Source of the DNA: Bacteriovoracaceae bacterium
Lineage (GTDB): Bacteria > Bdellovibrionota > Bacteriovoracia > Bacteriovoracales > Bacteriovoracaceae
Assembly (NCBI GenBank): GCA_018649885.1
Contig: JABIHA010000075.1
Coordinates: 62,001 to 88,344 of the forward strand
DNA: 26,344 nt
Reading direction: 5' to 3'
Shown: piece after piece, positions 1,755 through 26,199 of the stretch
Numbering within the stretch: position 1 is the stretch's first letter
Layout of the letters: each line of letters begins with the position of its first letter
Position numbers and translations under genes: made by a program
The notes under the pieces: model-generated
What the model saw: only the letters and a program-made list of their open reading frames with translations
What the model was told of the DNA's origin: nothing
The model's database searches: none

Positions 1755-1779
1755 CGCGGGCCTTGGACAGTGGGTATAG

Positions 1780-2907
1780 TTATTTTTTCAAGCTAATTAG
1801 TGTTTCACTTATATATTTAATCTTCTCACTTGGTAGGTTACTCGATGAAGGCAGGTAAAACCCATTTTTTGTCAATTTTTCTGTAACTGAGTAATCACCA
1901 GTCATGGTGCAACCATATTTTTCAAGCGAAGGCTGCTGGTGCATACCTACAAAAAATCTTCTAGAGTCGATTCCTTTCTCTCGGAGCATTTCCATAATCT
2001 CTATGGAGCCCCTGCCAAATTTTTCAGGATCAATTAATATTCCATTCATCCATTTAACATTCACAGAGTCCAACTGATCCACAGGAAAGCTAATACCTTC
2101 AACATTTTGAAGATATTCCTTGTAGGCTTCAGAATTTTTTATCCTTAGAGATCTGTATTCATCGGCCTTCTCAACTTGAGCAAGTCCAATGGCTGCATGA
2201 ATATTAGACATTCGGTAATTGAAACCAATGTCATGATGTCTGTAATCTCTTGGTCCATCTAAAGAAAAACATACATTTTTATAATAAAGTAGGTTTTTAT
2301 AAACTTCCTCTGAATCAGTTACCGCAAGGCCTCCCTCTCCAGTGGTTAAGTTTTTATTTGAATACAAACTAAAAGCAGCAACATCTGACATGGATCCTAC
2401 CTTTGATCCTCTGTATTCTGCTCCATGTGCCTCAGCTGCATCTTCTAAAATAAGAAGGTTGTGTTTTTCAGCAACTTTTCTGATGGCATCCATATTACAG
2501 GGGTTGCCAAAAATATGAACTGGCATTATAGCTTTTGTTTTAATCGTTATTTTGCTCTCAATTTCATCTTCATTTATATTCCATGTATCTGACCGGGCAT
2601 CCACAAAAACGGGCATGGCCCCTGTATAGCAAACTGCGAATGCGCAAGATGACATAGTAAAATTAGGGATAATAACTTCATCACCCTTTCCAATTCCAAG
2701 AGCAACTAAGGCTAGATGAAGTGCCGCAGTTCCATTGCAAACAGAAACTGCATATTTAACATCACAATATTCTGCAAACATTTCCTCAAACTGAGAAACA
2801 TACTTGCCCTGTGATGATATCCATCCAGTGGAAATGGCATCGTTAACATATTTTATTTCGTTGCCATTTAAAGAGGGCTCGCAGACGGGAATAAACTCAC
2901 TGCTCAT
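1780..2907 (-). CDS. DegT/DnrJ/EryC1/StrS PLP-dependent sugar aminotransferase, perosamine synthase-like
   Basis: GWISSQG, NGTAALHLAL, VHIFG, EDAAEAHG, FSLYSNKNLTTGEGG (catalytic Lys codon at 2353-2355), GFNYRMSN and YLPS. Confidence 0.92.
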   Translation of the reverse strand: MSSEFIPVCEPSLNGNEIKYVNDAISTGWISSQGKYVSQFEEMFAEYCDVKYAVSVCNGTAALHLALVALGIGKGDEVIIPNFTMSSCAFAVCYTGAMPVFVDARSDTWNINEDEIESKITIKTKAIMPVHIFGNPCNMDAIRKVAEKHNLLILEDAAEAHGAEYRGSKVGSMSDVAAFSLYSNKNLTTGEGGLAVTDSEEVYKNLLYYKNVCFSLDGPRDYRHHDIGFNYRMSNIHAAIGLAQVEKADEYRSLRIKNSEAYKEYLQNVEGISFPVDQLDSVNVKWMNGILIDPEKFGRGSIEIMEMLREKGIDSRRFFVGMHQQPSLEKYGCTMTGDYSVTEKLTKNGFYLPSSSNLPSEKIKYISETLISLKK

Positions 2908-3278
2908 ATGAGCTTTTCATCCAATCTATAGGTGTCGGACTCATATTCTTTTCCACCTCTTGGACCTTGAGTGAAAACTATCATCTCTGATTTTTCTAGG
3001 GCCTTGAAGGCATGGTATTCATTTGGCACAGTCTCAACAAAGTCACCTTTTTCCATTACAATCTCGACAGGTTCTCCATCTAACATTTTTGCCACATGCT
3101 TAACTTTTCCAGAAATTATATAATTCCACTGAGTTGTTTCTTTGTGATAGTGATTCGCTCTGACAGCATCTGTTTCAAACGAAATCACTGTAACCGCATT
3201 AATATTCTTATTTTCAAGAAGGTCAGTTATTACACCTCTGTCATCTGTATGGGCGGGTACAAGGTTAATTTTGTTCAC
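2904..3278 (-). CDS. Cupin-domain protein (putative NDP-4-keto-sugar isomerase/epimerase)
   Basis: DDRG, RANHYHKETTQW and PNEYHAF cupin motifs. GTG start; 4-nt overlap with the aminotransferase gene. Confidence 0.8.
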   Translation of the reverse strand: MNKINLVPAHTDDRGVITDLLENKNINAVTVISFETDAVRANHYHKETTQWNYIISGKVKHVAKMLDGEPVEIVMEKGDFVETVPNEYHAFKALEKSEMIVFTQGPRGGKEYESDTYRLDEKLI

Positions 3279-3301
3279 GTTATTTCCTTTATTTATTATT
3301 T

Positions 3302-7952: not shown

Positions 7953-7956
7953 ATAA

Positions 7957-8904
7957 TTACTTGCTACCCATTTCCAGAAATTTTTTGGCAGACCAAAGGA
8001 AACTATGAAGTTTTCTATTTATCAAACCGTTTATAAGCATTCGGTAGGTTTTCATAGAAAAAGAATTCTTCCAAAAAAGTAGACTTCCCCGATAAAAGCG
8101 ACTGATACCAATAATGTATCTTCCGGCCCTAAGATGGAGTTGACCCGAGATAAAAAGAGCATTGCTTTTTGATTCATTCAAATACTCATTGTACTCACTT
8201 AAATCTAAATCATTGTAGGTAGTATCAATAATTGAAATAACTTCATCTGCCCTGGCTTTAGATACACCTTCAAATGTCTGTGAATTATTGTGAACTCTAA
8301 AAGCCGCTAAGTTTTTGTTTACCCACTGAACATTACAAAACTTTGTCACTTTTAGCCAGTAAGCAAGATCTGGCATCTGAATCAGATCTTCTCTCCATCC
8401 ACCAAAATTTTCGAATATTTTTTTTCTAAAAAGAACACCTGGACCAATGGGATTATCGATGTGGCGAATAAGCTTTGAGTAGCAAAACCTCCTACTGACA
8501 ATTTCCCTTATTACTTTTGAGTTTGGGTCAATCAAATCAAAATTTGGATAGCAAATATCAATAGACTCATCTGACATGGCCAGCACAAGCTCTTTTATAG
8601 CATTTGAATGGAAAAAATCATCATCACTTAGATAACCAACAATTTCACCACGGGCCAGTGACCATCCCTTATTTAGTGAAGCCGGTTGACCAATATTTTC
8701 TTGATTAACAACTATGGCCCTTTCCTTAAACTCATTAATTATTTGAGGACTCGAATCAGTAGATCCATCGTTAATTATAATAAGTTCTATGTTGGGATAA
8801 CTTTGAGAAAGGATGCTTTCGATGGCGGTGCGAACGTAGCGCTGTCCATTATAAACACATATAATAATCGACACTAAAGGCCGGTAATCATCATCATTTT
8901 TCAT
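7957..8904 (-). CDS. GT2 family glycosyltransferase
   Basis: PLVSIIICVYNG, INDGSTD, LNKG, YLSDDD, GGWREDL..MPD and FRVH. Confidence 0.92.
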   Translation of the reverse strand: MKNDDDYRPLVSIIICVYNGQRYVRTAIESILSQSYPNIELIIINDGSTDSSPQIINEFKERAIVVNQENIGQPASLNKGWSLARGEIVGYLSDDDFFHSNAIKELVLAMSDESIDICYPNFDLIDPNSKVIREIVSRRFCYSKLIRHIDNPIGPGVLFRKKIFENFGGWREDLIQMPDLAYWLKVTKFCNVQWVNKNLAAFRVHNNSQTFEGVSKARADEVISIIDTTYNDLDLSEYNEYLNESKSNALFISGQLHLRAGRYIIGISRFYRGSLLFWKNSFSMKTYRMLINGLINRKLHSFLWSAKKFLEMGSK

Positions 8905-8925
8905 CGCTATAAGAGTAATACAGAA

Positions 8926-10686
8926 TTACCGCTTTGCTAAGCTTCTCATGTTGATAATTTGATCAGCGTACTTAATTATTCCAGGCCGATGCGAAACAAT
9001 AATTGTAGTAGAATTGCCTTTGAATTGCCGGATGGCATCAGCAATATTGTCTTCAGTTTGCACGTCTAAGTTGGCAGAAATTTCATCGAGTATCAAAAGT
9101 GTAGGATCCCTTAAAATTGCTCTCGCAATGGACACCCTTTGCTTTTGCCCTGTGGAAAGCTCACTAGCAGCTTCGCTTAACTGAAAAGCCAGACCTTGCG
9201 GTTTTTCATGATACCAACTACTTAAACCAACCTTATCAAGAATTTCTTCTATTTTTTTATCCTCAATGCTAATGCTATTTCCGTAGAGTAAATTCTCCCT
9301 AAGAGAGCCTTCCACTAAAAATGGATCAGGCCCAACGTAGCCAATACTCTTTGAGTGCTCTAGTAAATACTGACTAGGACCAAGGCCATCAATTTTCACA
9401 CTCCCTGCAGCAGGCTTTAACATCCCCATCAGTAGTGCCAAAAGTGTCGATTTTCCGGAGCCGCTCTCTCCTACAATTGCCAGCTGCATTCCGCCATCCA
9501 CTGTGAAATTAACATCCTTGATTAGATGTGGATTCGTTTCATCATACTTGAAACCCAGACTTTCAATTTTTAAAATGGGTGGTTTAGAAATATCTTTTGG
9601 AGCGGTGATAGAGCTCTTTGAATCAGCTTCTACTTTGTCAGTACCCAGACCTCCAGTAGGTGTTGGTGAGAATATCCGGACTCTATTGTTAGCAAGTGTG
9701 TACGGTTTAACTTTCTCTTTAGGTATTTGGCCAAAAAATTCCCAAGCAAGTTTGAAGTGGGGATAATGAATATTTGCGATTCCAAAAAAATTGGAAATTT
9801 GTCCCAAGAGTTGAACAAATCGCATAAAGAGATAGAGGTAGGAGAGAAATAGAGCATTTTCAATGAGATGATTTTGTTTATGGAAAAGTAAAAAAATCAC
9901 CACAAGAATAATCCCCAGAGCAGAGGGAAGATTAACTGAGAGAAGTGACAAAACGTTAGCAAAAATATTTCTGGTAGTGTAATTAACCTGTAGCTCTTTG
10001 AAGCGTCCACTTTCAGTATTTTCAATTCCTAAAATTTTGATCAAAAACCAATTTTTCACAATTCTGACAACACTAGAGTGCAACTCACTATTAATGCCAG
10101 GTAGTGGAGCCACCATTACTTGAATCTTTTTTTGAATGAAAAAGACTACTGTGGCAGCAAATACTAGGTATACCAACCCTATTAGGGTGTAAGTAACGGA
10201 AGTGAGGAAAAGAAAAGTAAAAATACAAACCATTTGAATTGTTAACGGCAAGATATGTGCGAAAGAGTGAAAAAACAAAGCTGTTTTTCCAAATGTTTCT
10301 GCAAACATAGAATTTGTACTAGCAAGGGAAGTAAAGGATGAATTTGCGTACAAAATATTATTCATACAAAGTAGTTTCAAACGAGAAGCAAAAAGTTCAT
10401 TTGAAACAACAGCACTAAGGCCCGAAAACAAAAACATAACGGCCCGCAAAACCCCTAGTAGGGCAAGGACAAGTAGTCCTTTTGTTAAATCATTTACCTC
10501 AATATTCAAACCAAATGGCATCTGCACAGCTTGATCAGTAAGACCAAGAGCTCTAATGATCACCATAATATAGCCAGAAAAGATGATTTCAATACCTGCC
10601 AGAATCAACCCTGAAGACATGCCTATGACAAGCCACTTTAATGACCTAGTACCTGTAAATGTTGAAACCTTTTTTGCGAAGCTCAT
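8926..10686 (-). CDS. ABC exporter with fused TMD-NBD (PglK/MsbA/HepA-type, putative lipid-linked glycan flippase)
   Basis: N-terminal multi-TM domain, Walker A GESGSGKST, signature LSTGQKQR, Walker B LLILDE and H-switch SHR, in a glycan-locus context. Confidence 0.88.
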   Translation of the reverse strand: MSFAKKVSTFTGTRSLKWLVIGMSSGLILAGIEIIFSGYIMVIIRALGLTDQAVQMPFGLNIEVNDLTKGLLVLALLGVLRAVMFLFSGLSAVVSNELFASRLKLLCMNNILYANSSFTSLASTNSMFAETFGKTALFFHSFAHILPLTIQMVCIFTFLFLTSVTYTLIGLVYLVFAATVVFFIQKKIQVMVAPLPGINSELHSSVVRIVKNWFLIKILGIENTESGRFKELQVNYTTRNIFANVLSLLSVNLPSALGIILVVIFLLFHKQNHLIENALFLSYLYLFMRFVQLLGQISNFFGIANIHYPHFKLAWEFFGQIPKEKVKPYTLANNRVRIFSPTPTGGLGTDKVEADSKSSITAPKDISKPPILKIESLGFKYDETNPHLIKDVNFTVDGGMQLAIVGESGSGKSTLLALLMGMLKPAAGSVKIDGLGPSQYLLEHSKSIGYVGPDPFLVEGSLRENLLYGNSISIEDKKIEEILDKVGLSSWYHEKPQGLAFQLSEAASELSTGQKQRVSIARAILRDPTLLILDEISANLDVQTEDNIADAIRQFKGNSTTIIVSHRPGIIKYADQIINMRSLAKR

Positions 10687-12002
10687 ATAATTTGTTGGGT
10701 ACCCTTAAGCTGACTATCGTTAACTCTACTATACTTTGTGACCATCACCAATATTGAAAGTACTACCCAAAATCCAGGGGTCTCAAATGTTGCGCCAAAT
10801 ATGCCCATGATACAATTGTAGAAAATAAATAGTAACCACACTAGTGAAATTAAATCTTTTTTATCTCTGAAAGAAATTTCAAACTTTCTAACATAGTAGC
10901 CTATTAACAGCCCGATAAAAACAACTCCAATATCTCCAAAATCCCAGTATGGTGATGAAATCATAGTATAAAAAGAATTGTGGGTATAAAACCAATGATG
11001 TGTGGGGAGTTTATCACCTGTTACGATCTTATAGCTTTGATAAAACAGGTTTAGGTGAGTTGGCGAAGAGAACATTTTCTCACCCAGTCCTCTGAGAAAA
11101 ATCGTATAAAGATAATCGAGACCACCAAGTGTCATCCGTCCAAAGCTTGGATCATTTGTGATGAAAAAATTGTCATTTTCCATCATTTTGGAAAATAGAG
11201 TGAACCCTACGGTATGGTAATTGAAAACTGCCCTAAAAAAGCTATTATTTCTTGCAAGAGATATAAGATAGAAAGCAGGTACACTGAGTGCACCACCTAA
11301 CGCAATTCTAACCACATGCTTTTTAGTTAGTTTTAAAAATTCAGGAAAACAAAAGACCAAGTAAAGGCCACAAACACCAAGTGAATATAGTGGACCTCTT
11401 GATAATTTGAATGCCGTCTCAATTACGACTAGTAATATCAATAAAACCATTGGAAGCTTCTTTTTGAGAAGTACCAACTGGGCCATGGAAGAAATTAAAA
11501 GAAAATGGAAACAAACCCCACTCAATATAAAATAAAGGGCTGAAAATATTTTTGAAGAAAACCAAAGATTACCATTTTTCCCAATTTGGAAAAAACGAAT
11601 CCTTATGTGCATTAAGTCCACACCTTCGTTCATAAAAATGACAATCGTTTTATAAAGTAAAAATAAGGATACAAGTATAACTGGCACTACCAATGTGTAC
11701 CCAATAAGATTCAACAATCTTGAGGCATTACCATTTTCAACACTGATACTAGTGCTACTAGCTCCTTTCGATTGAAAACAAAAACTTCCCACAACCATGC
11801 TTGCTCCAAATAAAAGTGCTAGGAATTCTACATTCGTGTTGGGAAAGGCCACCGACCCCAAATCTAAGACTGAGATGAAGCTCCATCCAAGCCACCAAAC
11901 CAGAATCAAGCTCAAGGTATTAAAGAAGCTATTATATATTCTGGCGCTCAAAATAATTAAAAGCAGTGAGCATGAGAGAAATATCAATAGATGCCAAATC
12001 AT
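10683..12002 (-). CDS. wzy: O-antigen/oligosaccharide repeat-unit polymerase (Wzy-like)
   Basis: About 11 TM segments, SRG motif and the C-terminal N.FYT....PYWDFG.IG motif seen in Wzy-type polymerases. ATGA overlap with the ABC gene. Confidence 0.7.
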   Translation of the reverse strand: MIWHLLIFLSCSLLLIILSARIYNSFFNTLSLILVWWLGWSFISVLDLGSVAFPNTNVEFLALLFGASMVVGSFCFQSKGASSTSISVENGNASRLLNLIGYTLVVPVILVSLFLLYKTIVIFMNEGVDLMHIRIRFFQIGKNGNLWFSSKIFSALYFILSGVCFHFLLISSMAQLVLLKKKLPMVLLILLVVIETAFKLSRGPLYSLGVCGLYLVFCFPEFLKLTKKHVVRIALGGALSVPAFYLISLARNNSFFRAVFNYHTVGFTLFSKMMENDNFFITNDPSFGRMTLGGLDYLYTIFLRGLGEKMFSSPTHLNLFYQSYKIVTGDKLPTHHWFYTHNSFYTMISSPYWDFGDIGVVFIGLLIGYYVRKFEISFRDKKDLISLVWLLFIFYNCIMGIFGATFETPGFWVVLSILVMVTKYSRVNDSQLKGTQQII

Positions 12003-15689: not shown

Positions 15690-16835
15690 TTAACTTAGAA
15701 AAGATTTAACTTTGGAAACTTTTTCTTTGTGCTTATTTCTTATAAGTTGCATTTGTAGGGGTATTTTAGAAAAGACACTGTAAAATTGGCGAGAATAATT
15801 TTCTCCCTCTAAACAGTTATTACAATTTTTAAACAAAGGTCTTCTGGTCTCATTCATGATGACACCAGAATACAATTTAGATTGAAGTTGATTATCTTTC
15901 CAAAGCCCAATAAAGCCACTGTGCTTAATATTTCCCATGGGTTTTCCGTCACAATAAGTTGATATTCGGTAGTCGCCATTACTTTCAATATAGCCACCAT
16001 AAAGGCCTGCAAAACAAGGCAGCAACTCATTTCTCTCCTGGAAAGTTGAGGCATCAGAGGTAAAGCTTTGTCTTGCATACTCTAGGGTTTTCAATAAATT
16101 ATTAGAAAGATTCCCCTGAGTAAACCTTTCCTCTATTTCAGATAGAACTTTATTAATATGTCCAAATTCTAATTTTTTTGAGGCAATTTCTTTGTAACCA
16201 ACATATACAGGTCTAATGGCCACAAATATGTCATTTTTCTCAACGTAATCTAGTACTTCCGAAAACTCAGCATAATTGTCTGTAGTCATCACATAGTTAA
16301 TTTGGATTTTCTTTTTAACACCAGGAATTTTTGCCAATCGGTCTAAATTTTTCATGATTTTTGGAAGCTGAGTAGCTCCTTTGTAATCATGAATCACCTG
16401 ATGAGTTACATTATTAAAAGAATTAATACTGATAGTAATTTTATGAAGCTTTGAAAATGTAGAGTCCGGGAGTCTCTCAACGAGTGTACCATTGGTGACG
16501 ATTAATACTTTCACACCCGCTTGGTGTAAAAAATCTACAATTGGCGTCAGTCTTGGGTCAGCTGTAGGCTCACCATTTCCGGCCAACCTTACTTCTTCAA
16601 TTTTTAACTTTTTAATATCAGATAAAAGCTTCCACAACATTTCATCTGGCATCTTAAAAGAAGTGTGCTCCACAGGAATTAAATTTGAATGTTCAGCACA
16701 AAAATAACATTTATGGGTACACGCTGAAGTAGTAGCTACTTCAAGCATGATGGGACCTTTATTACAGTCCGTATTAAAATTAACGGTCTTCATCAATGAA
16801 ATACCGCGCTTTATATTTTCCAAGTTTAGATTCAA
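15690..16835 (-). CDS. Radical SAM protein with C-terminal SPASM/Twitch-like domain
   Basis: CxxxCxxC (CTHKCYFC), GNGEPT, VTNG and ISINS; C-terminal PCF...IESNGD...C...GNI...LW...CNNC. Likely start is TTG 16835, 8 nt after AAGGAAG (track start 16898). Confidence 0.88.
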   Translation of the reverse strand: MNLNLENIKRGISLMKTVNFNTDCNKGPIMLEVATTSACTHKCYFCAEHSNLIPVEHTSFKMPDEMLWKLLSDIKKLKIEEVRLAGNGEPTADPRLTPIVDFLHQAGVKVLIVTNGTLVERLPDSTFSKLHKITISINSFNNVTHQVIHDYKGATQLPKIMKNLDRLAKIPGVKKKIQINYVMTTDNYAEFSEVLDYVEKNDIFVAIRPVYVGYKEIASKKLEFGHINKVLSEIEERFTQGNLSNNLLKTLEYARQSFTSDASTFQERNELLPCFAGLYGGYIESNGDYRISTYCDGKPMGNIKHSGFIGLWKDNQLQSKLYSGVIMNETRRPLFKNCNNCLEGENYSRQFYSVFSKIPLQMQLIRNKHKEKVSKVKSFLS

Positions 16836-16874
16836 AACTCGAGCTTCCTTATTTCTGAGAATAATCAAAGAATA

Positions 16875-16903
16875 ATAGTAATTTAATAAGCACAGCATTC
16901 CAA
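16875..16903 (-). promoter_or_regulatory. Candidate sigma70 promoter for the radical SAM gene
   Basis: TTGGAA-17 nt-TACTAT on the minus strand, upstream of the SD and TTG 16835. Confidence 0.3.
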
Positions 16904-17011: not shown

Positions 17012-18508
17012 CTAATGTCGCCCCACTTCACCCAATGTCTTTGAGTGAAATATTCCACTACTAAACATTCCCTCTAACATCTGGTGACTTTTTTCAGGTG
17101 AAATCCTAAAACCGTAATGCTTGTAGTAGGCCATGATATATTTTCGGTTAAACCAATAGGGGTGTGGTGAGCTAAACCACATTTTTGCATAGCCTTTGCT
17201 TTTAGAAATATCTGCACGTAAAAACCGCTTATTAATATCCCCATAATCTGAATATCTAAAATGATAAACATTAAATAAAATAACTAAGGCCAGTGCAATG
17301 AATCTTTTTTCTTTCTCTGACTGAAAACGCTCAAATAGATCTTCCAAAATGCAGCATAGTGATAACACAAAAAGCCAATCAGAATAAATAAGGTAGACCA
17401 TATTATGGCCCCTGATACAAAAGAAAGCTAAATAAGTGATAAAAAAACCATAGACCAAAGATTTTTTTACCAAGTGCTTTCTCCTGGCAAAAAGAAAGAG
17501 CAACGTGAAAACCACAAAAACAGACCAATGAGAAAAATATTGCTCAATATAGTAATTCAAAGTAACTAGCATTTCTCCTAAGTCTAAACTTACCTTAACT
17601 TTTGTAGTACCTATTGGGTTTAATATTAACGTAGAGAGAAGCTTTTGGTAGTACCAAGCCCTTGCCTTACCAATTAATGGGTAGGTTATTAAATACGGTG
17701 TGAAAAAAGACACACAAAATCCAAAGGCCAAGACAGTTGTTGGAACGACACTTTTTAAAACCAATACCTTGCCCTTTAGGTACACACCCAATTTGCCAAA
17801 TATCTTAATGTAGTTTTCATTGTACTCACTTGAAATCACAATTCTAAATACCTCGAAACCTAGAGGGGCCAAAAAAGGGTAGGCCATAATTTTATTGTAA
17901 AGGGCCCAACAATATAAAAACCCTGAAAGAAATAAGCAGATTAAATACCTAAACAGCCGCTCTTTTTTGAGTTGTTGAGTAGCACAGAGAATAAATATCC
18001 ATGAGATGACACCAAAGCTACATGATAACAACTCTGATCTAATAATTTGCATTTGATCGCAAACACCAATCCCTCCCATAACCATTAAAGAGGCCGATGC
18101 AGCAATGGTACGACTTTTAAATAAAAGTCCGAACAAGACAAAAATACACATGATAAAAAATATGGAGCAAATAAGACTATAGTAGCTAGCAAGCTTAATT
18201 ATGCAGGGCCACTGCATAATAAGATTATTTGAATCAGAAAAATAACTCACATCAAAATGTGGAATGACCCCTACGATATAAGCCATTTTCACAAATCGAC
18301 CAAATAGAAGTTTCGTAAAAAATGAAGGGTGCACTGAAAGAGCGGGAAATTCACCACTATTTAGTGCTATTGCACCTGAAATTTGTTGGACATCATTGTC
18401 AAGTGCTGCCCACCAAGTCCTAGTTTCTAAGAGCCATGTATGTTTTAAAGAAAGTAATAAAGTTACCGTAAGTAGAAGAAATAAAAATAATCTCTTAGAT
18501 TTAGTCAC
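17012..18508 (-). CDS. Polytopic membrane protein, probable GT-C fold (ArnT/PMT-like) polyprenyl-phosphate-sugar-dependent glycosyltransferase
   Basis: About 11 TM segments. Acidic residues (DND) follow TM1, then HPS, and IRSE lies in a later loop, matching the GT-C layout. It sits directly downstream of a DPM-synthase-type GT2. GTG start after GGTGA. Confidence 0.6.
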   Translation of the reverse strand: MTKSKRLFLFLLLTVTLLLSLKHTWLLETRTWWAALDNDVQQISGAIALNSGEFPALSVHPSFFTKLLFGRFVKMAYIVGVIPHFDVSYFSDSNNLIMQWPCIIKLASYYSLICSIFFIMCIFVLFGLLFKSRTIAASASLMVMGGIGVCDQMQIIRSELLSCSFGVISWIFILCATQQLKKERLFRYLICLFLSGFLYCWALYNKIMAYPFLAPLGFEVFRIVISSEYNENYIKIFGKLGVYLKGKVLVLKSVVPTTVLAFGFCVSFFTPYLITYPLIGKARAWYYQKLLSTLILNPIGTTKVKVSLDLGEMLVTLNYYIEQYFSHWSVFVVFTLLFLFARRKHLVKKSLVYGFFITYLAFFCIRGHNMVYLIYSDWLFVLSLCCILEDLFERFQSEKEKRFIALALVILFNVYHFRYSDYGDINKRFLRADISKSKGYAKMWFSSPHPYWFNRKYIMAYYKHYGFRISPEKSHQMLEGMFSSGIFHSKTLGEVGRH

Positions 18509-18518
18509 TAATCACCAA

Positions 18519-19229
18519 TTACTTTTTGGGAGCAATTAACTTCCAACGTTGCCCAACTTTAATTTCTCTGAAAAATAATTTTAAAAAAGACAGGCCTGTT
18601 TCAATGCTCGGAGAACCTTCTTGCTCATCGATTCTCTGGCCTTCATAAGTTGGAAATTCTTTAATCTTAAGGCCCAATTTAAATGCTCGAATGCTACTTT
18701 GGTACTCTATTGTGTATCCAGGACCATCGAGAGAGATTCTCTCCCAGGCAGATCTAGTGATTGCTCTAAAGCCATTGATTGTATCGTAAACAAAATCCCC
18801 TCTATTCCACATGACGTTGGCAATGAGAGTGAAAAAATTATTGGCCCATTTTCTTATTTTTAAAAACTGCCCATCTTCTTCATTATGCCCACCATCTGAC
18901 ATTCTATTTCCAATTACTATGTCATAGCCATCATCAAGATAAGGTTTAAATTTAAATATATCAGCAGCTGTTTCATTTCCATCGGGGCTGTAAAAAATCA
19001 AAGCGTCCCCAGTTGCCTTTTCAAAGGCCAAGCGAAATGCCTCTCCCCTACCTTTGACATCTTGTATGTGACAAGTAACTCCATTTTCTTTGAAGAACTC
19101 AAGGCTTCCATCAGTAGATCCGCCATCGACTGCAAAGACCTCATCAACTGCGTCCATAGGGATCCCAGAAAATGTTTCTTTTAACCCTACAATCTCGTTG
19201 TAAGTAAGTATCACTAGTGTCGTTTTCAT
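18519..19229 (-). CDS. GT2 glycosyltransferase, polyprenyl-phosphate glycosyltransferase (DPM1/ArnC/GtrB-like), no TM tail
   Basis: ILTYNE, VDGGSTDG, GRGEA, SPDG (DxD position), DIVIGNR, DTINGFRA and IKEFPT. Confidence 0.88.
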   Translation of the reverse strand: MKTTLVILTYNEIVGLKETFSGIPMDAVDEVFAVDGGSTDGSLEFFKENGVTCHIQDVKGRGEAFRLAFEKATGDALIFYSPDGNETAADIFKFKPYLDDGYDIVIGNRMSDGGHNEEDGQFLKIRKWANNFFTLIANVMWNRGDFVYDTINGFRAITRSAWERISLDGPGYTIEYQSSIRAFKLGLKIKEFPTYEGQRIDEQEGSPSIETGLSFLKLFFREIKVGQRWKLIAPKK

Positions 19230-19232
19230 TAT

Positions 19233-20165
19233 TTATCCTAAGTCTCTATCTAAAAAATCAAGGTATGCGATTTTAACACCCTCTTCAAGAGTATAATTTG
19301 ACTTCCACCCCAGGGCCTCTAACTTCGTTACGTCTATATTTTTTCTTAGTATCCCATCCGGTTTAGAGGGGTCATTGCAAATTTTAACTGGATATTCCAA
19401 AACTTGACTGACTTTTTGAGCTAACTCCATTACAGAGTGATCGACTCCCGTGCCTACATTAATAGGTTCTAATTCATTGTAGTTTTGGAGTAAAAAAACC
19501 AAGGCGTTAGCGCAGTCATCAGCTAACATAAACTCTCTTCTTGGTCTTCCACTTCCCCATATTTCAATTTCTTTTTCACCTTCTTTTTTTGCCTGGTGCA
19601 CTTTTCTGATTAGTGCTGGAAGAAGGTGCGACTTTATAGGGTCGTAACTATCATTTACTCCATATAGGTTTGTGGGGATGGCCGAAATAAAATTCACACC
19701 ATATTGTGTCCTATAATATTGACACATTTTTATTCCTGAAACCTTTGCTAGTGCATAAGCTTCATTTGTTGGCTCAAGTGGTCCTGTAAATAGATATTCT
19801 TCCTTAATAGGGTTTTCAACTTCCTTGGGGTAGATACATGAGCTTCCTACAAATAAAAGTTTCTTCACTCCTGACTTATATGAATGATGAATTACATTAT
19901 TTTGAATCTTGATATTGTCATAAAAAAATTCTGCAGGAGAATTGATATTGGCCTGTATTCCACCCACTTTTGCAGCTGTCAAAATTACATACTCAGGGCG
20001 CTCACTACTGATAAAATCACTTACAGATTTTTCGTCTCTTAAATCGAGCTCTGCACTAGTTTTACAGATGATATTTGTAAAACCTTTGGCCTTTAACTGT
20101 TTAACAATTGCGGAGCCTAATAAACCTCTGTGTCCAGCAACATAAATTTTATCACTGGGCTTCAT
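19233..20165 (-). CDS. fcl: GDP-L-fucose synthase family epimerase/reductase (Fcl; possibly ColC-type in this context)
   Basis: AGHRGLLGS, AAKVGGI, GSSCIYPK, LEPTNEAYALAK, PTNLYG, SHLLPAL, WGSGRPRREF and KPDG. Confidence 0.92.
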   Translation of the reverse strand: MKPSDKIYVAGHRGLLGSAIVKQLKAKGFTNIICKTSAELDLRDEKSVSDFISSERPEYVILTAAKVGGIQANINSPAEFFYDNIKIQNNVIHHSYKSGVKKLLFVGSSCIYPKEVENPIKEEYLFTGPLEPTNEAYALAKVSGIKMCQYYRTQYGVNFISAIPTNLYGVNDSYDPIKSHLLPALIRKVHQAKKEGEKEIEIWGSGRPRREFMLADDCANALVFLLQNYNELEPINVGTGVDHSVMELAQKVSQVLEYPVKICNDPSKPDGILRKNIDVTKLEALGWKSNYTLEEGVKIAYLDFLDRDLG

Positions 20166-22062
20166 AAGCCATTTCCTTTTTCCGCTTCTTACTAAGCTCA
20201 GGTTTTAAAATATTTTTTAAAATCATTGTGGTAAATTTAATTGCGCTAAGGAATCTATTTTGTTTCTTTCTTCGAATCAGCTCCCTTCTCTCCCGAGTAG
20301 GAATCTCTGATACTTTGAGTCCATATTTCACAGATTTGAGAGTCATCTCAAACATAATGCTATAGCCTTTTTCAACTAGACTCATTTTGTGAATAGCGTG
20401 TTTTTTAAATCCCCTAAAAATATTATTACAGTCTGTTATATTTCTTCCATATAGAACATTTAAAATACCGGTGAAAAACCTATTCCCAACAGAGTGAAAA
20501 GAGTATGGCCTTAAAATATCCCTCTCTCCTCCCATCATAAAACGACTTGCAATCACAAGTTCGGTGCCCTGACGTAATTTAATTAAAATTTTGTCAATAT
20601 CATCAATTACTTCTGTCCCATCAATTCCCATCACAATAATATTTTCACAATCTGTACTCTCAACTGCTTGGAGAAGAAGCTCTCCTTTTTGGGCCCCAGG
20701 ACGATGAATGACATTAACACCTAGGTCTTGAAAAAAGTTTTCAACGCGAGCATGAGTTGATGCATCCGCGACAATTACGTCATCAAGGGATCTCCCGCTT
20801 AAGCTATCCCATAGACCTGAGAAGATAACACTATCCTCTAATTCATCAAGCTTTGAGAGTATGATAAGGCATGACTTATCAACGCGAATGGATTTCTTAC
20901 TAAAATAATCACCAAATGTTTCAACAATATATTCTCTTTCAATATCAGATATTCCCTGATGTGATCCAATATAAAATCCACTTTCATTTATCCATTTGGC
21001 CACAGGGTAATCATCTTCTTTTATATCTAATAATTCTTTGTAATAGGGTTGGTTTGTGAGAGGGAGCATATCTCTCGTTTCAATTCCATTTTTTTCAAGA
21101 TACTCAACTAGCTTTTCTTTTGATTCATTTTTCACCACAATAGGAAACATCATAAAAGAGTGTCCACAATCTGGTCGAACCTGGGGAAGCTGAATATAAT
21201 CACTAAAGCTTTCAAGCTTTTCTATGAAAAATTGTCCATTGTCCCATCTCTTTTTCATCATTTCATCATGGTTTTCAAACTCTGCAAGGCCAACCGCACC
21301 TTCCATCTCGGTAACTCTAAAGCTGTGACCCATTTGAACAAAAGAAAATCTTTTCTTGATAATCATTTTCATTTCATCATCAGTTTTATCTTTGTCGTCA
21401 TCAATACTGATATAAATTGAATCTCGACCATGATTCATCATAGAACGAATCCGAACAGCAAGATCAGTGTCATTGGTTGTATTTAGGCCACCAACACCAG
21501 TTGTGAGTATGTGGGCCACATAGGTTGAAAAACATCCTACATCTCCAAGAGACCCAACTGATCTCCCCTTGTATTTTACAAACATCGTCTCACACGAATC
21601 TTCTATCACTCTAAGCTTGTTAATCTTTGCAATATCTAAAATAGGATCCATATCACAGGGAGATCCAAATAGATGAACGGGAATCACACACCTGGTCTTT
21701 TCAGTAATTTTTTCCTCAATTTTAGTTGGGTCTAATTCATAAAAATGAGGGTCAACATCAACAAAAACTGGAACCATATTGCATTGTAAAACAATATTCG
21801 AGGTGGCAATAAAAGTTACAGCTGGGACAATGACTTCATCTCCATCCGACCACCCGTACTTTGTCTTGAGTGCCTGCAACGCCAGAAGTAATGATGAAGT
21901 TCCACTATTAGTCATGGTTGCAAATCGGCAGTCATGGGCAAAAGCAAACTTGCTTTCGAATTTCTGGGTAAAAGGCCCATAGGAAAGGCGCCCCGTTTCA
22001 ATCACCGAGTTCAGATATTTTTTGGTATTTTTTGAAATTTTATAAGTCCCTACACCTATCAT
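20152..22062 (-). CDS. Fusion of a DegT-family PLP enzyme with His in place of the catalytic Lys (ColD-like 3-dehydratase) and a C-terminal degenerate DPM-type GT2 domain
   Basis: NSGTSSL, PAVTF, PVHLFG, EDSCE and FSTYVAHILTTGVGG; the C-terminal ~240 aa contain LVIASRF, GNRFFT, TDCNNIFRG and VSEIPT. Likely start is ATG 22062 (track TTG 22083). 14-nt overlap with fcl. Confidence 0.85.
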   Translation of the reverse strand: MIGVGTYKISKNTKKYLNSVIETGRLSYGPFTQKFESKFAFAHDCRFATMTNSGTSSLLLALQALKTKYGWSDGDEVIVPAVTFIATSNIVLQCNMVPVFVDVDPHFYELDPTKIEEKITEKTRCVIPVHLFGSPCDMDPILDIAKINKLRVIEDSCETMFVKYKGRSVGSLGDVGCFSTYVAHILTTGVGGLNTTNDTDLAVRIRSMMNHGRDSIYISIDDDKDKTDDEMKMIIKKRFSFVQMGHSFRVTEMEGAVGLAEFENHDEMMKKRWDNGQFFIEKLESFSDYIQLPQVRPDCGHSFMMFPIVVKNESKEKLVEYLEKNGIETRDMLPLTNQPYYKELLDIKEDDYPVAKWINESGFYIGSHQGISDIEREYIVETFGDYFSKKSIRVDKSCLIILSKLDELEDSVIFSGLWDSLSGRSLDDVIVADASTHARVENFFQDLGVNVIHRPGAQKGELLLQAVESTDCENIIVMGIDGTEVIDDIDKILIKLRQGTELVIASRFMMGGERDILRPYSFHSVGNRFFTGILNVLYGRNITDCNNIFRGFKKHAIHKMSLVEKGYSIMFEMTLKSVKYGLKVSEIPTRERRELIRRKKQNRFLSAIKFTTMILKNILKPELSKKRKKEMAYEAQ

Positions 22063-22271
22063 TTTTCCGCCAAGAAATCGCAAAGCACTGGTGGCCCAAA
22101 GTTAGTGTTGGACACGGATGCGACAATGGTAAATTTATACTGGTCACAAGATACAATGATTGATGACTCAAGTAAATTTTTCGGACGCTGAAGCTACTAC
22201 GCATCAGTTGTCAGAGTCACCCACAAATATCGCAACGAATCATCTTGGAAGTTATCAGGCCCAGATTAAAT

Positions 22272-22949
22272 TTATTCTTTTTCGGCCATCACTAGCAGGT
22301 TTTTTCCAAAGAACTTTTTAAAGATAAAATCGAGATATTTACCAAGAGGGAAGAAGACTTTGTCGTATAAAAATACTGACCAAGAGCTAATTTCGCTTCC
22401 ACCTGTCAGTTTGTAAATGAGGGCAAACAGGAAGCCCAGGGTATCGGCGAACTCTAACTTTCGAATTGAAAGCTTACTCTCTATGATCTTGGATTCAAGC
22501 TCTGTCCAAGTGTAGCGTCTAAAATGGCCTACTTTTTTATCAAATTTCGAATAGAGAATTGGGCCTGCAGGTACATAGAGAAATAGCTGTCCTCCAACTT
22601 TTAGTTTTTGGTACATTTTTTGTAAAATTTCACGGTCATTGTCGATATGCTCTAGAACATTAAGGGAATAGATTAGATCAAATGAGTTATCCTCAAAGCA
22701 GTCTAGTGATTCAAAGACCTCAAAATTAAATTTAGTCAAAAAAACCTTCAACTCTGGGTCAACTTCCACACATATTGGCTTTTTAAACTTGGCAGCAACC
22801 TGCTTTGCAAACACCCCCCGCCCAGCGCCGAAATCTAAGACTTTTTTATCGCTATCAAGAAACTTACAAAGATGCTCAAACACAAAACCATTGTAATTCG
22901 TGGCCTTATCAAGGATTTCTAGCTCTTCTTTTCCTGCGTACCTTGTCAC
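22272..22949 (-). CDS. Class I SAM-dependent methyltransferase
   Basis: VLDFGAGRG, FDLIYSLNVLEHI and VPA...YSKFD..VGHFRRY. GTG start after AGGAG. Confidence 0.88.
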   Translation of the reverse strand: MTRYAGKEELEILDKATNYNGFVFEHLCKFLDSDKKVLDFGAGRGVFAKQVAAKFKKPICVEVDPELKVFLTKFNFEVFESLDCFEDNSFDLIYSLNVLEHIDNDREILQKMYQKLKVGGQLFLYVPAGPILYSKFDKKVGHFRRYTWTELESKIIESKLSIRKLEFADTLGFLFALIYKLTGGSEISSWSVFLYDKVFFPLGKYLDFIFKKFFGKNLLVMAEKE

Positions 22950-23035: not shown

Positions 23036-25498
23036 TTGAGTAGAATAAGCACAATATTGTTCAAAGCATTATTAAAATGGTCACCCGTGAAAAAAAATAA
23101 AATAATTATCTCTATTTCAATTCTCGGAGCTATAGTCGTGCTGATGGCGAGTTCTCAACTCATTTTGATCTCTCTCCAGAAAATATTCGGACCTGGATAT
23201 ATTTCAAAGTCACTTAGCTATCTAGACCCAATACTGACATTAAGCAAACCCTCTACTGACCCCAAACTTATTCAATTTGATATAAAACTACCAGATAAAG
23301 AGTGGAATGAAATTTCAGCTCACTATATGAAATTAATGGAGAAAAAAATTAATAATGATGAATATCTTGCAGGTAATATTTGGCACAAGGCCAAACTGGT
23401 TTACCGCGGCCACCCTTATAGGATCAAGTTAAGACCTCATGGAAGAGAGCCCTCTGGACACCTCCATCGTGGAATGATGTCCTTAGAGATAAAGATTCGT
23501 GATAATCGCAATTTATTTGGTGGACGAAAATTTAACCTCATTATTTACGAAAGGATTAAATACCTATTTGAACCCAAGAAATATCTCTCAGAAAAGCTTG
23601 GTATCACGCACATAAAATCCCAAGTTGCCAAAGTAAAAATTGGTAATTTGGGTTACAAAGTCTTTTTCATAGAAAACAAATTTGATAATTCCTACTTTGA
23701 GATCAATGGAAACTCATCGCTTAAGGTATTTAAATGGGCCGAATTTAAATCTCCGATATTGAGCACAGTCAGAAGACCTGGTATTAGTGGCAAACAAAAA
23801 ATAAAAGCTGCTGCCTACGAACAAAATAAAAGCATGCTAGCTAAATTTGGAGAATCGCTCGATTTAGTAAAGACAGATGTAAACCAAAAACAATACTACC
23901 TAACTTTTTTCAATAAACTTAATACCTGCATAATAGAAAATGATCTAGATTGTGTAAAAAGTTACTTTGACGTTGAATATATTAGCTCATTTCTGGCGCT
24001 AAAAGAGCTACTAGGATTTAAATGGCATGGAGTAATGCCGGATAACTTTTTTGTGGCCTGGAATCAATCAAATGGAAAACTCTACCCTATAATAAATAGA
24101 GATTATTATACATCAGTATTCGAAACAAATACGCTCCCCAATTATTTTTATGAGTTTAAAGAGGGGGCATACCATTTTAATCTTATCCTAATTAAAAGAC
24201 TTAATAGCATTCCTGAAATCAACCATCTAAAAATAAAAAAGATTTTAGCGATCACAGGACAAAAAAAAGAAAAAGAAGAATATATTAAATTTAGAAACCA
24301 ATCTAGGGATAGACTCACTAAATTAAAATACAATCGCCTTGGACAAGTCATTCAAAATTTCATGCACCACAAAAGGGATCAGATAAGAGGAAATGTTACC
24401 CAAAATTGGGATAAGTTGCACAAATACTATAGAAAAAGAAAAAACCCACAACCGAACTTTCAAAGAAAAAATCACCACCCCCTCATTACTGTAAAGGAAT
24501 TTTTTAGGGTTAAATTAATAGGAAATACCATTCATATACTTCCCGGCAAATATACGATTACAAGAAATATCATCTTCCCAAAAAAATACAGCGTTGAAAT
24601 TTCTGGACCTACTAAAATAGAAATTTCTCCAAAATCTTCTATTGTGATCCAAGGTAATTTTAAAATTTTCTCACCCAACTCTAATCGAGTTCAAATTAGC
24701 TCTACCAGCCTCACTAAGCCATTTGGAGCTTTTGCCATAAATGGAGCCGAAAACTGTAACATAGATGGACTTGATATAAGCGGTGGGAGTCAAGCATGGA
24801 TAACTGGAAGTTTCTATAGTGGAGGCTTAAATATCTATAACTGCAAAAATGTTTCAGTCAAAAATACAACCGTTTCCAAAAACTATGCAGACGATGGCCT
24901 CAATATAAAACTTTGTGACCATTTACAAATAAGAGATTCCAAATTTTTAAATAATTTCGCTGATCAAGTGGATATTGATTACTGCAACGGTGTCGTTGAA
25001 AACTCTGTCTTCTCTGATTCTGGAGGTGATGATAACGGAGACGGAATCGATGTAAGCGGCTCAGAGATTATCCTTAGAAACAACCACTTTTCAACATTTC
25101 GCGACAAAGCAGTCAGCCTTGGAGAAAAATCAAAGGTCATATTGGCCTCCAATACATTTTTGAAAAACAAGCTCGCCATAGCCGTAAAAGATTTAACGGA
25201 TGCAATTATCCTCGAAAACAAATTCTCTGGAAATCAAATCGACGTTATTGGATATCAAAAAAAAGAAATCTTTGATGGTGCCAATATCTATATTGACAAA
25301 AAAATCAGTGAGAGTATTTCTTATGCCATTGATACCAGATCAAATATCTTTCAAAAGAAATACTCTCAGGACTTGCTAACTCAAACGGCCAAGGCGACTA
25401 GATACACAAACCTTTCAAATCTATTTGGAAAGGGATACTATGTTGATACCCGAGACATTAGCCACCTCGCGCGCAGCAGCTGGCTTCCAAACAACTGA
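23036..25498 (+). CDS. Membrane-anchored CotH-kinase-like protein with C-terminal right-handed parallel beta-helix domain
   Basis: N-terminal TM; IKLRPHG...SLEIKI, V.VKIG...VFFIE..FD and HG...DN....N...GKLYPI..D resemble CotH family motifs. C-terminal repeats DDGLN, DQVDID, GDGIDVSG and DKAVSLGE. Start is uncertain (TTG 23036 or GTG 23087). Confidence 0.7.
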   Translation: MSRISTILFKALLKWSPVKKNKIIISISILGAIVVLMASSQLILISLQKIFGPGYISKSLSYLDPILTLSKPSTDPKLIQFDIKLPDKEWNEISAHYMKLMEKKINNDEYLAGNIWHKAKLVYRGHPYRIKLRPHGREPSGHLHRGMMSLEIKIRDNRNLFGGRKFNLIIYERIKYLFEPKKYLSEKLGITHIKSQVAKVKIGNLGYKVFFIENKFDNSYFEINGNSSLKVFKWAEFKSPILSTVRRPGISGKQKIKAAAYEQNKSMLAKFGESLDLVKTDVNQKQYYLTFFNKLNTCIIENDLDCVKSYFDVEYISSFLALKELLGFKWHGVMPDNFFVAWNQSNGKLYPIINRDYYTSVFETNTLPNYFYEFKEGAYHFNLILIKRLNSIPEINHLKIKKILAITGQKKEKEEYIKFRNQSRDRLTKLKYNRLGQVIQNFMHHKRDQIRGNVTQNWDKLHKYYRKRKNPQPNFQRKNHHPLITVKEFFRVKLIGNTIHILPGKYTITRNIIFPKKYSVEISGPTKIEISPKSSIVIQGNFKIFSPNSNRVQISSTSLTKPFGAFAINGAENCNIDGLDISGGSQAWITGSFYSGGLNIYNCKNVSVKNTTVSKNYADDGLNIKLCDHLQIRDSKFLNNFADQVDIDYCNGVVENSVFSDSGGDDNGDGIDVSGSEIILRNNHFSTFRDKAVSLGEKSKVILASNTFLKNKLAIAVKDLTDAIILENKFSGNQIDVIGYQKKEIFDGANIYIDKKISESISYAIDTRSNIFQKKYSQDLLTQTAKATRYTNLSNLFGKGYYVDTRDISHLARSSWLPNN

Positions 25499-25506
25499 GA
25501 ATTATA

Positions 25507-26199
25507 ATGGAAGATTTTTTTTCAAAAATCCTTGAGATTACCCCTAGCAGTTACTCATTTTCCCTGGCCGATATTGTATTTGTTATATTTCTTTCTTTTA
25601 TCCTTAGCATGATCATCGCAAAGACATATACCCTTACTCACTCTGGAATTTCTTACTCAAGAACATTTACCATTAATCTCGTCATACTCAGCCTCGTTGT
25701 TTCTTGTGTAATGCTAATTGTAGGATCAAATATTGCGAGGGCCTTTACACTCGTTGGAGCGCTTTCAATTGTAAGATTTAGAAATGCTATTAAAGACACT
25801 ATTGATATTGGATTTATCTTTTTTTCCATGGCCGTGGGCATGGCCTGTGGAACTAGGTTTTATTTAATGGGTGTTACAATGACTCTTTGTATTTCCACCA
25901 TCATTTTTATTTTAAATAAGACAAATTTTGGAGAAAGAAATGTATCTCAATCTCTTTTAAAAATTATGACAAATGAAAAAGATGGAGCTGACACGATTAT
26001 TTCTCCCCTTATAAAGAAAGTGGCTTTCGAGCATTCACTTATTAGTATCAATGGAGTGGGCGGAGACAATATTGAATTAAATTACGCTGTAACATTTCAC
26101 CATAAAAATAAGGAACAGCTACTTGTAAGTACCCTTAGAGATGTTCCAATAGTAAAAGATGTGCAAATTTATCTTGGAGATGCACTTTCTGAAATTTAA
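25507..26199 (+). CDS. DUF4956-like membrane protein (TM domain plus C-terminal ACT-like domain)
   Basis: YSRTF...L, IVGSNIARAFTLVGALSIVRFRNAIKD..DIGFIF.SMAVGMACG is the characteristic DUF4956 pattern. Confidence 0.85.
   Translation: MEDFFSKILEITPSSYSFSLADIVFVIFLSFILSMIIAKTYTLTHSGISYSRTFTINLVILSLVVSCVMLIVGSNIARAFTLVGALSIVRFRNAIKDTIDIGFIFFSMAVGMACGTRFYLMGVTMTLCISTIIFILNKTNFGERNVSQSLLKIMTNEKDGADTIISPLIKKVAFEHSLISINGVGGDNIELNYAVTFHHKNKEQLLVSTLRDVPIVKDVQIYLGDALSEI

Follow-up and report, generated by a model that had tools for sequence, protein, structure and literature searches.

A recurrent four-gene cassette predicted to load a 3,6-dideoxyhexose, possibly colitose, onto polyprenyl phosphate for transfer outside the membrane

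A co-oriented four-gene cassette that recurs in uncultured bacteria

Four genes, all on the minus strand at 17012..22062 of the 26,344-nt stretch of DNA analysed here (the window), form a cassette that recurs together across many uncultured bacteria. Based on sequence comparisons and structural models, we consider it fairly probable that the cassette makes a polyprenyl-phosphate-linked 3,6-dideoxyhexose, probably colitose, for extracytoplasmic transfer. To the narrower statement that the sugar is colitose itself we give slightly less than an even chance.

The cassette encodes a fusion of a His-type DegT enzyme with a DPM-type GT2 domain (20152..22062; 636 aa counted from ATG), an Fcl-family epimerase/4-reductase (19233..20165), a stand-alone GT2, also DPM-type, that belongs to the SPDGNE clade (18519..19229; 236 aa) and a polytopic membrane protein that is a predicted GT-C enzyme (17012..18508; 498 aa). 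The spacing is exactly a 14-nt overlap, then a 3-nt gap and then a 10-nt gap, which confirms the tight packing described in a previous reading of the sequence alone. The frame of the fusion is open upstream as far as a TTG at 22083, and the majority of aligned homologs start at or near MIGVGT. A promoter and terminator scan gave counts at chance level (20 against 25.9 expected, and 8 against 5.2).

The identical gene set in the same order was also present in three other loci (L004, L013 and L096), and all four functions were found in 11 of the 12 tabulated loci carrying the window's GT-C family; the exception is a 2.9-kb contig. An upstream methyltransferase was rejected as a core part of the cassette, with a homolog near just 8 of 122 GT2 loci.

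A His-type dehydratase domain fused to a degenerate GT2

The N-terminal half of the fusion (residues 1-391; 20890..22062, minus strand) is a His-type DegT/DnrJ PLP enzyme domain (PF01041, 300 bits) that we predict to be a GDP-4-keto-6-deoxymannose 3-dehydratase, ColD-like in mechanism and from a separate clade. His184 occupies the position taken by the catalytic Lys in perosamine synthase and by H188 in E. coli O55 ColD, as expected for the His-type enzyme originally proposed; this position is His in 114/115 full-length fusion homologs, and the domain is the sole His-type member among the 8 DegT-family genes of the genome. The Lys-to-His change is described as a hallmark of sugar 3-dehydratases (PMC8987622). 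The E1/SpnQ-type [2Fe-2S] Cys motif, present in 5 other rows compared, is absent from the window's clade, and an E1/E3-type system was rejected on this ground. An Arn-like amino-sugar pathway was likewise rejected, given His instead of Lys and the lack of ArnA/D/E/F.

As a statement of orthology, the label ColD did not hold. The domain shares 27% identity with ColD, is a better match to perosamine synthase (202 bits) than to ColD (143 bits), and falls outside the ColD/E1 clade in a FastTree phylogeny without support values, for which the rows had been thinned to 103. Equivalents of ColD D159, E162, S183, H215, R250, E329 and R331 are kept, and six other ColD residues (K26, W88, S187, E194, R219 and N248) differ. 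We know of no assayed member of the window's clade.

The C-terminal half of the fusion (20152..20889, minus strand) is a DPM-type GT2 domain with 26.5% identity to the neighbouring stand-alone GT2. Its donor-site columns (N11, E12, S38, D40, G60, E86 and R199) are unconserved across 115 homologs, and on this ground a catalytically active domain was rejected. The columns of the lipid-phosphate triad are Arg in 115/115, Arg in 105/115 and Asn in 114/115 homologs, with His at the second Arg column in the window copy. The fusion of DegT and GT2 recognized from the sequence is present, but its GT2 half appears to be a degenerate pseudo-enzyme that has lost its donor site and likely acts as a membrane or lipid-phosphate tether. 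A complex prediction pairing it with the stand-alone GT2 scored 0.01, which speaks neither for nor against an interaction.

An Fcl-family reductase predicted to perform the ColC step

The second gene product is predicted to do the job of ColC as a GDP-sugar epimerase/4-reductase. It matches NF047922 with 431 bits, below the cut-off of 500, and retains S-S-C109, Y136/K140 and H179, which we take to be the epimerase-reductase residues of Fcl and ColC (Ser-x-Cys109, Tyr136/Lys140 and His179). Both Cys109 and His179 are retained in 77/77 reductases neighbouring GT2 loci. Here too orthology was not supported: the protein is closer to E. coli Fcl (46% identity) than to E. coli O55 ColC (40%), and in a quick tree it groups with Fcl, outside a ColC clade with support of 100. 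When blastn was used to search E. coli genomes, fcl alone was among the matches listed.

The gene is the second fcl copy in the genome; the other adjoins gmd. As previously reported, no gmd lies within the window, and a genome search located it about 82 kb from the cassette. GmhA/GmhB/HddC-like genes, judged by their first residues, occur in the surrounding island, and a separate Lys-type PerA-like gene lies at 1780..2907 of the window.

The ColD/ColC pathway for GDP-L-colitose (E. coli O55, PDB 2GMS; locus L084) resembles the window in that a PLP enzyme with His for Lys and no Fe-S motif adjoins an Fcl-family epimerase/reductase, with Gmd in the genome. Besides the divergent dehydratase with its fused pseudo-GT2 and the reductase outside the ColC clade, the two differ in the genes that accompany these enzymes: an alpha-1,2-fucosyltransferase-type gene, Wzx and Wzy in the O55 cluster, a DPMS-type GT2 and a GT-C in the window.

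Structural models of the GT2 and the membrane protein

The stand-alone GT2 is a predicted polyprenyl-phosphate:GDP-3,6-dideoxyhexose transferase. Its model (pLDDT 88.7) has no TM helix, and its best sequence and fold match is PfDPMS (PDB 5MLZ; Z 22.7, rmsd 2.9, 223 residues aligned), 4.7 Z ahead of the phosphoglycerate-acceptor enzymes GpgS (Z 18.0) and MpgS (17.4); ArnC matched with Z 16.5. R109/R126/N130, invariant in 23/23 sequences, align with the PfDPMS triad R117/R131/S135 (with Ser changed to Asn), equivalents of D91 and R202 are kept, and helices 125-141 and 208-225 of the model match the DPMS interface helices (C-terminal half). These predicted features favour the polyprenyl-phosphate type first suggested for this enzyme. 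In contrast to PfDPMS, the window GT2 has SPDGNE for DADLQH, Thr for K178 and no C-terminal TM domain. The DxD site reads S-P-D, such that the metal-binding second Asp is kept and the sugar-contacting first Asp is Ser. An invariant Glu86 replaces PfDPMS His94, which contacts the donor 3-OH, making this residue odd for a 3-deoxy donor.

The 498-aa membrane protein is predicted to have a GT-C fold; its family is rare and has no Pfam model. The protein had no match in Pfam, NCBIfam, PDB-sequence or word-index searches, a local PMT profile likewise missed it, and 25 distant homologs were found among 1.84 billion searched. When its predicted model (pLDDT 77.6, pTM 0.84) was compared with 48,161 chains using VIA-align, the top 20 matches all belonged to the GT-C superfamily (Z 21.7-11.6, next 7.6), among them ALG12 (Z 21.7, rmsd 4.8 over 377 residues), Pmt2 (21.1), AglB (20.8) and ArnT (19.3), in line with the fold anticipated from the sequence. 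Seven of 24 aligned family members match PMT, and the Atlas neighbours of the protein are PMT/PMT_2. D37, R157 and E159 are near-invariant in the family, with D37 (at least 90% conserved) in a D-x-D after the first helix; proteins of the GT-C superfamily characteristically have an acidic residue in their first external loop.

The absence of a GtrA-type flippase from the window was confirmed, and neither GtrA (PF04138) nor SMR (PF00893) flippases were found in the 92%-complete genome. The cassette itself has no dedicated GtrA/SMR/MATE flippase gene; two Wzx-type and two LPG_synthase_TM genes lie elsewhere, and GtrA stands beside 1 of 122 GT2 loci.

Co-occurrence of the module and alternative readings

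The predicted association of these genes was found across phyla. In a metagenome survey anchored on the GT2 alone (23 full-flank loci), a His-type DegT was present within 5 kb of the SPDGNE GT2 in 20 loci and a K-type in 2. Within the same phylum, 13/14 loci had a His-type DegT, the single miss stopping at a contig break; after removal of the four loci in the query alignment, the count was 9/9 informative loci. By comparison, a His-type DegT was found in 6/40 Fcl-anchored control regions and in 0/6 sister-clade GT2 regions.

True ColD orthologs (59-65%) together with ColC and Gmd were partners of the GT2 in L201, L203, L207, L208, L129, L138, L147, L160 and L161, and in the GT2 tree the true-ColD and window-clade partners are interleaved (13 label changes against a minimum of 4). 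In L207, a true ColD-ColC-GT2-Gmd set is accompanied by a GT-C of the window's family (E 2.8e-35; this sequence was absent from the profile). That the GT2 is found now with true ColD, now with a ColD sister and now with a dehydratase of the window's clade supports a GDP-3,6-dideoxyhexose donor. It is unlikely that the same lipid-carrier/GT-C route instead carries a sugar epimeric to colitose at C4, a 3,6-dideoxyheptose or, in the case of transamination by the His enzyme, an amino sugar. Such a substrate would suit the separate dehydratase clade, the invariant Glu86 and the heptose-type genes of the island, as well as descriptions of C. jejuni ColD homologs (62-67%) that act on GDP-heptose (PMC10440746) and of SpnQ, a His enzyme that transaminates without its reductase (PMC8987622). 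However, the GT2 clade is common to true ColD-ColC-Gmd sets, and the window already has its distinct PerA-like gene. Heptose genes lie within 6 kb of just 5/122 GT2 loci, which disfavours a heptose substrate, and an Fcl-type keto-reductase, superfluous for an aminotransferase product, is near 19/23 loci.

The GT-C is linked to the module more loosely than the dehydratase and is a variable partner, often absent. A GT-C lay within 3.5 kb of the GT2 in 14/23 metagenome loci and 5/13 same-phylum loci, compared with 6/40 in the Fcl-anchored control (p 0.11 for the same-phylum loci). Many modules are minimal and have no GT-C next to them (nine related loci, L030-L046, plus L009, L011, L159, L107 and L120), and ten GPDGNE loci have no GT-C in view. 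The window's own GT-C family was not found in 4/5 tested module-bearing genomes, and four weaker matches to it are in genomes without the GT2; in the reverse test, the GT2 was present in 3/4 non-circular genomes having a strong match to the family versus 14/300 genomes. We regard it as improbable that the three soluble genes make a dideoxysugar that the GT2 transfers on the cytoplasmic side to some other acceptor (a phosphate that is soluble or on a glycerolipid, or an Und-PP glycan under assembly), with the GT-C a frequent neighbour using another donor. The many modules without an adjacent GT-C or flippase would fit this arrangement, as would the GT-C found in 10/24 control His-DegT loci lacking the SPDGNE GT2, the fold matches to GpgS and MpgS, and the other DPM-like GT2s and 5 PMT_2 matches in the genome. 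Against it stand the lead of DPMS over those matches, the invariant lipid-phosphate triad, the GT2-to-GT-C gap of just 10 nt, and the rare GT-C family, which tracks the GT2 across genomes and lies beside it with three different dehydratase clades.

It is very improbable that the Fcl paralog makes plain GDP-L-fucose for a polyprenyl-phosphate-fucose/GT-C route while the His-type DegT serves another purpose: the grouping of the reductase with Fcl, the 3/23 GT2 loci without a His-DegT within 5 kb and a Glu86 that could bind a 3-OH are outweighed by the gmd-fcl pair already in the genome, the fusion of the dehydratase to a DPM-type GT2 copy, and the contrast between the GT2 loci and the 20 top-scoring Fcl control regions, where His-DegT was found in 0/20.

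Proposed pathway and its significance

The sequence-only reading of a four-gene lipid-carrier pathway is supported in part, by the predicted GT-C fold, the DPMS-like site of the GT2 and the co-occurrence of the genes; orthology to ColD and ColC is not supported, the fused GT2 has lost its donor site, and the GT-C partner varies. In the polyprenyl-phosphate-dideoxyhexose pathway that we favour, GDP-4-keto-6-deoxymannose likely comes from Gmd, whose gene lies in another part of the glycan island that contains the cassette. The His-type PLP domain, likely held at the membrane by the pseudo-GT2, would remove the 3-OH. Epimerisation and reduction of the product by the Fcl paralog would then yield a GDP-3,6-dideoxy-L-hexose, with colitose the likeliest sugar. 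This sugar would be loaded onto polyprenyl phosphate by the SPDGNE GT2, some transporter would flip the lipid-linked sugar across the membrane, and on the outer side a surface acceptor would receive it from the GT-C protein. With inversion at each of the two transfers, the sugar would end up beta-L-linked, the reverse of what one-step direct transfer from the GDP-sugar would give.

The sugars known to pass through lipid-monophosphate/GT-C glycosylation are common hexoses, pentoses and amino sugars; we did not find a lipid-carrier delivery route described in the literature for the 3,6-dideoxyhexose class. The three-component periplasmic systems outlined in PMC11127046 (GtrABC, Gml and pentofuranose/GT136) share a polyprenyl-phosphate-sugar synthase and a variable GT-C with the window. 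Compared with that outline, the window's donor is a predicted GDP-3,6-dideoxyhexose made inside the module, the cassette has no GtrA, SMR or MATE flippase gene, and the GT2 lacks a TM helix and reads S-P-D where D-x-D is usual. The Arn (Ara4N) operon likewise combines a DegT-family enzyme, a polyprenyl-phosphate GT2 and a GT-C (ArnB/ArnC/ArnT), whereas in the window a His-type dehydratase takes the place of the Lys aminotransferase, a formyltransferase, a deformylase and ArnE/F are absent, and the predicted sugar is a neutral deoxysugar.

In Bdellovibrio bacteriovorus, a relative from the same phylum, mannose is described in place of the lipid A phosphates (PMC7468853), making neutral-sugar capping of lipid A a candidate acceptor role. 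More broadly, there is close to an even chance that the cassette belongs to a widespread and so far undescribed polyprenyl-phosphate-colitose pathway. In it, a GT2 clade that serves only 3,6-dideoxyhexoses would have teamed up again and again with His-type dehydratases from four or more lineages, in one of which the Lys-to-His change may have arisen independently, with a pseudo-glycosyltransferase as membrane tether; the GT-Cs that attach beta-L-colitose to lipid A, O-glycan or protein on the outer side of the membrane would be interchangeable. If true, lipid-monophosphate/GT-C glycosylation would be extended to 3,6-dideoxyhexoses with an unusual beta-L linkage, and three families that occur in many phyla and are so far uncharacterised would gain a function, namely the SPDGNE GT2, the Pfam-less GT-C family and a second clade of His-type dehydratases.

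Genomic setting of the cassette

We rechecked the cassette and found four minus-strand open reading frames at 17012..22062 with a 14-nt overlap followed by gaps of 3 and 10 nt, as the sequence-only reading had described. The cassette lies inside a large glycan-biosynthesis island. The first bases of the window's contig and those of a second contig, C24, share about 57 nt with one mismatch, so that the island spans C24 and C37. On C24, some 82 kb from the cassette, lies gmd, and after it a second fcl; this fcl is split over the two contig ends (G000:C24:244-1293 and C37:1-750), with a divergent Rmd-like gene alongside.

The island holds further pairs of a GT2 and a multi-TM protein with a GT-C-like N-terminus (C24:10959-16746, C24:23416-30315 and C37:15252-17530). 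Within the window, a Lys-type PerA-like aminotransferase, a cupin, a sugar C-methyltransferase and a methyltransferase (993-4525) probably form a branched or methylated amino-sugar pathway. An opposite-strand O-antigen ligase-like gene, a Wzy-like polymerase and a PglK/MsbA-like ABC transporter (6837-12002) could possibly provide an acceptor pathway or flippase. Downstream of the GT-C gene by 113 nt, on the same strand, is a Radical SAM/SPASM gene (15690-16898), which does not recur regularly in related loci. A class I methyltransferase (22272-22949) lies upstream on the same strand and has homologs near 8 of 122 GT2 loci. The interval 23036-26199 encodes an 820-aa protein, with a beta-helix at its C-terminus, and then DUF4956, which also occurs near the GT2 in locus L128.

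Predicted sugar-modifying enzymes

The first gene (20152..22062, minus strand) encodes the DegT::GT2 fusion, with the DegT/DnrJ PLP domain at residues 1-391. His184 stands where perosamine synthase has its catalytic Lys and E. coli O55 ColD has H188; earlier reports describe this Lys-to-His change as the hallmark of the 3-dehydratases E1, ColD and SpnQ (PMC8987622; bioRxiv 2021.09.04.459008). The protein has no E1-type Cys motif. It is no ortholog of ColD: identity is only 27%, perosamine synthase scores higher, and the protein falls in a separate clade, albeit in an unsupported tree. The ColD residues D159, E162, S183, H188, H215, R250, E329 and R331 are retained; K26, W88, S187, E194, R219 and N248 are changed.

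Fusions of this kind are widespread, occurring in many phyla. Among 120 homologs listed, 115 were full length and 114 of these carry the His. Their fused GT2 domain has lost its nucleotide-sugar motifs and keeps the lipid-phosphate columns (R in 115, R in 105 and N in 114 of 115, with His at the second in the window's copy). It is best read, from these patterns, as a pseudo-enzyme tether. At L019:10001-13750 a PMT_2 GT-C comes immediately after a fusion whose GT2 might be less degenerate; neither an SPDGNE GT2 nor an Fcl is in view there.

The second gene (19233..20165, minus strand) encodes a member of the Fcl family (431 bits against a cut-off of 500) that shares 46% identity with E. coli Fcl and 40% with ColC. 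Its proposed identity as ColC was not upheld, as it falls outside the ColC clade in a nine-row clade of cassette neighbours. Cys109 and His179, which we take to be the epimerisation residues, are kept in 77 of 77 reductases found beside the SPDGNE-type GT2 clade, and this suggests an epimerising step that yields an L-sugar.

Predicted lipid-carrier glycosyltransferases

The stand-alone GT2 (18519..19229, minus strand) has PfDPMS as its sole PDB sequence match. Its model (pLDDT 88.7) is closest in fold to DPMS (Z 22.7, versus 18.0 for GpgS, 17.4 for MpgS, 16.5 for ArnC and 14.3 for GtrB). In PfDPMS, R117, R131 and S135 bind the lipid phosphate (PMC5526996). R109, R126 and N130 align to this triad and do not vary among the 23 sequences compared, consistent with the polyprenyl-phosphate type predicted from the start. 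The DADLQH motif of PfDPMS is replaced by SPDGNE, and the residues reported to contact O2 and O4 of the donor are changed. At the position that contacts O3 an acidic residue is retained, which sits somewhat uneasily with a predicted 3-deoxy donor.

The membrane protein (17012..18508, minus strand) matched no family in family-model searches and had 25 distant homologs among 1.84 billion representatives. PMT was matched by 7 of 24 aligned family members, and Atlas neighbours carry PMT/PMT_2. The expected GT-C fold was recovered: with the model (pLDDT 77.6, pTM 0.84), the top 20 matches were all GT-C superfamily chains (ALG12 Z 21.7, Pmt2 21.1, AglB 20.8, ArnT 19.3) and the next row had Z 7.6. 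D37 (first loop), R157 and E159 are conserved almost throughout. The predicted fold does not indicate the acceptor.

Searches for GtrA and SMR in the genome, which is 92% complete, gave no match. Candidate flippases are the ABC transporter (8926..10686) and, elsewhere in the genome, two Wzx-type and two LPG_synthase_TM genes. Scanning 20 small membrane proteins near the 122 GT2 loci (17 of 25 candidates and three others) gave one GtrA and one LPG_synthase_TM, plus one in L045.

Co-occurrence of the GT2 with sugar genes

Anchoring on the DegT clade, we scored 79 of 80 genome loci (L013 was left out of this count and checked separately) and found the SPDGNE GT2 within 5 kb in 31, an Fcl-like gene in 38 and gmd in 21; the dehydratase thus often occurs without this GT2. 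The GT2 was present at 15 of 18 DegT fusions in this set.

The proposed co-occurrence was borne out when the GT2 was the only anchor. The 80 metagenome loci, with the window's own sequence dropped, included 69 with the exact motif, 23 of them with 4 kb on both sides; near-duplicates in the set are L108/L109/L125 and L081=L153. Within 5 kb, these 23 loci contained a His-type DegT in 20, a Lys-type in 2, an Fcl-like gene in 19 and gmd in 6. Ten GPDGNE loci outside the 23 comprised five beside true gmd-colC-colD and five with no His enzyme in view; none of the ten had a GT-C in view. In L129, L138 and L160 the GPDGNE-subclade GT2 is flanked by gmd-colC-colD on one side and a PseB/PseC-like pair on the other, and no GT-C is visible.

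Among 300 other genomes of the phylum, 14 carried the SPDGNE clade, and a His-type DegT lay beside it in 13; the remaining locus is cut off by a contig break. The query alignment already contained four of the 14. Partners in the nine informative others were four true ColD orthologs (60-65%), four ColD sisters and one member of the window's clade. In control sets, a His-type DegT was found in 0 of 6 sister-clade GT2 regions (the short L188 shows a 40% ColD-like fragment) and in 6 of 40 Fcl-anchored regions, three of these six being ColD-ColC-Gmd sets without this GT2. The Fisher p of about 2e-8 for enrichment is an overstatement, because kin are not independent. The sister GT2 clade (SPDGNS; L209-L214) sits amid other SDR sugar enzymes with no His-type DegT and possibly makes a lipid donor of another rare sugar.

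On the GT2 tree, partner types are interleaved with 13 changes (minimum 4), and strongly supported branches force at least two for ColD. This exchange of partners is the strongest reason to think that the window's dehydratase clade makes the ColD product.

The GT-C as a variable partner

In 12 tabulated loci the GT2 has a member of the window's GT-C family beside it; 11 of these have all four functions, and three different dehydratase clades are represented. The loci were retrieved through other anchors, and most of them (not L207 or L018) then entered the family profile A5. In the reverse direction, strong matches (E<1e-30) occurred in 5 of 300 other genomes, 4 with the GT2 (3 of 4 once the circular one is removed; p 2.5e-4, with the same caveat of genome kinship). 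The two genes are adjacent in two of the four, 50 kb apart in one and on separate contigs in one. Four weaker matches came from genomes that lack the GT2.

Counting GT-Cs of any family by hand, we found one within 3.5 kb at 14 of 23 metagenome loci and at 5 of 13 phylum loci; widening the limit to 4.3 kb gave 7 of the 13. The figures for comparison are 6 of 40 Fcl-anchored controls and 10 of 24 His-DegT loci without this GT2 (4.1 kb window). Three-gene minimal modules without a GT-C are common, and the window's family was not found in four of five module-bearing genomes tested. The GT-C is therefore only loosely linked and a variable partner, as it is in Gtr systems. Its frequent absence leaves room for the alternative that the GT2 uses another acceptor on the cytoplasmic side and that the GT-C is a frequent neighbour with another donor. 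In five Elusimicrobiota loci (L057, L060, L067, L071, L082) the gene after the GT2 encodes an O-antigen-ligase (Wzy_C) plus TPR protein in place of the PMT-type GT-C.

Proposed route

We favour, with moderate confidence, a lipid-carrier/GT-C route for a 3,6-dideoxyhexose. Gmd would convert GDP-mannose to the 4-keto-6-deoxy sugar, from which the His enzyme and the Fcl paralog would make a GDP-3,6-dideoxy-L-hexose. The GT2 would load this sugar onto polyprenyl phosphate, and after the product had crossed the membrane the GT-C would pass the sugar to a surface acceptor. That the sugar is colitose itself is slightly less likely than not.

Searches of mainly open-access literature turned up no lipid-monophosphate donor that carries colitose, fucose or another 3,6-dideoxyhexose. 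The parts are of known kinds: the chemistry of ColD and ColC, and glycosylation by three-component systems (PMC11127046; PMC7685785).
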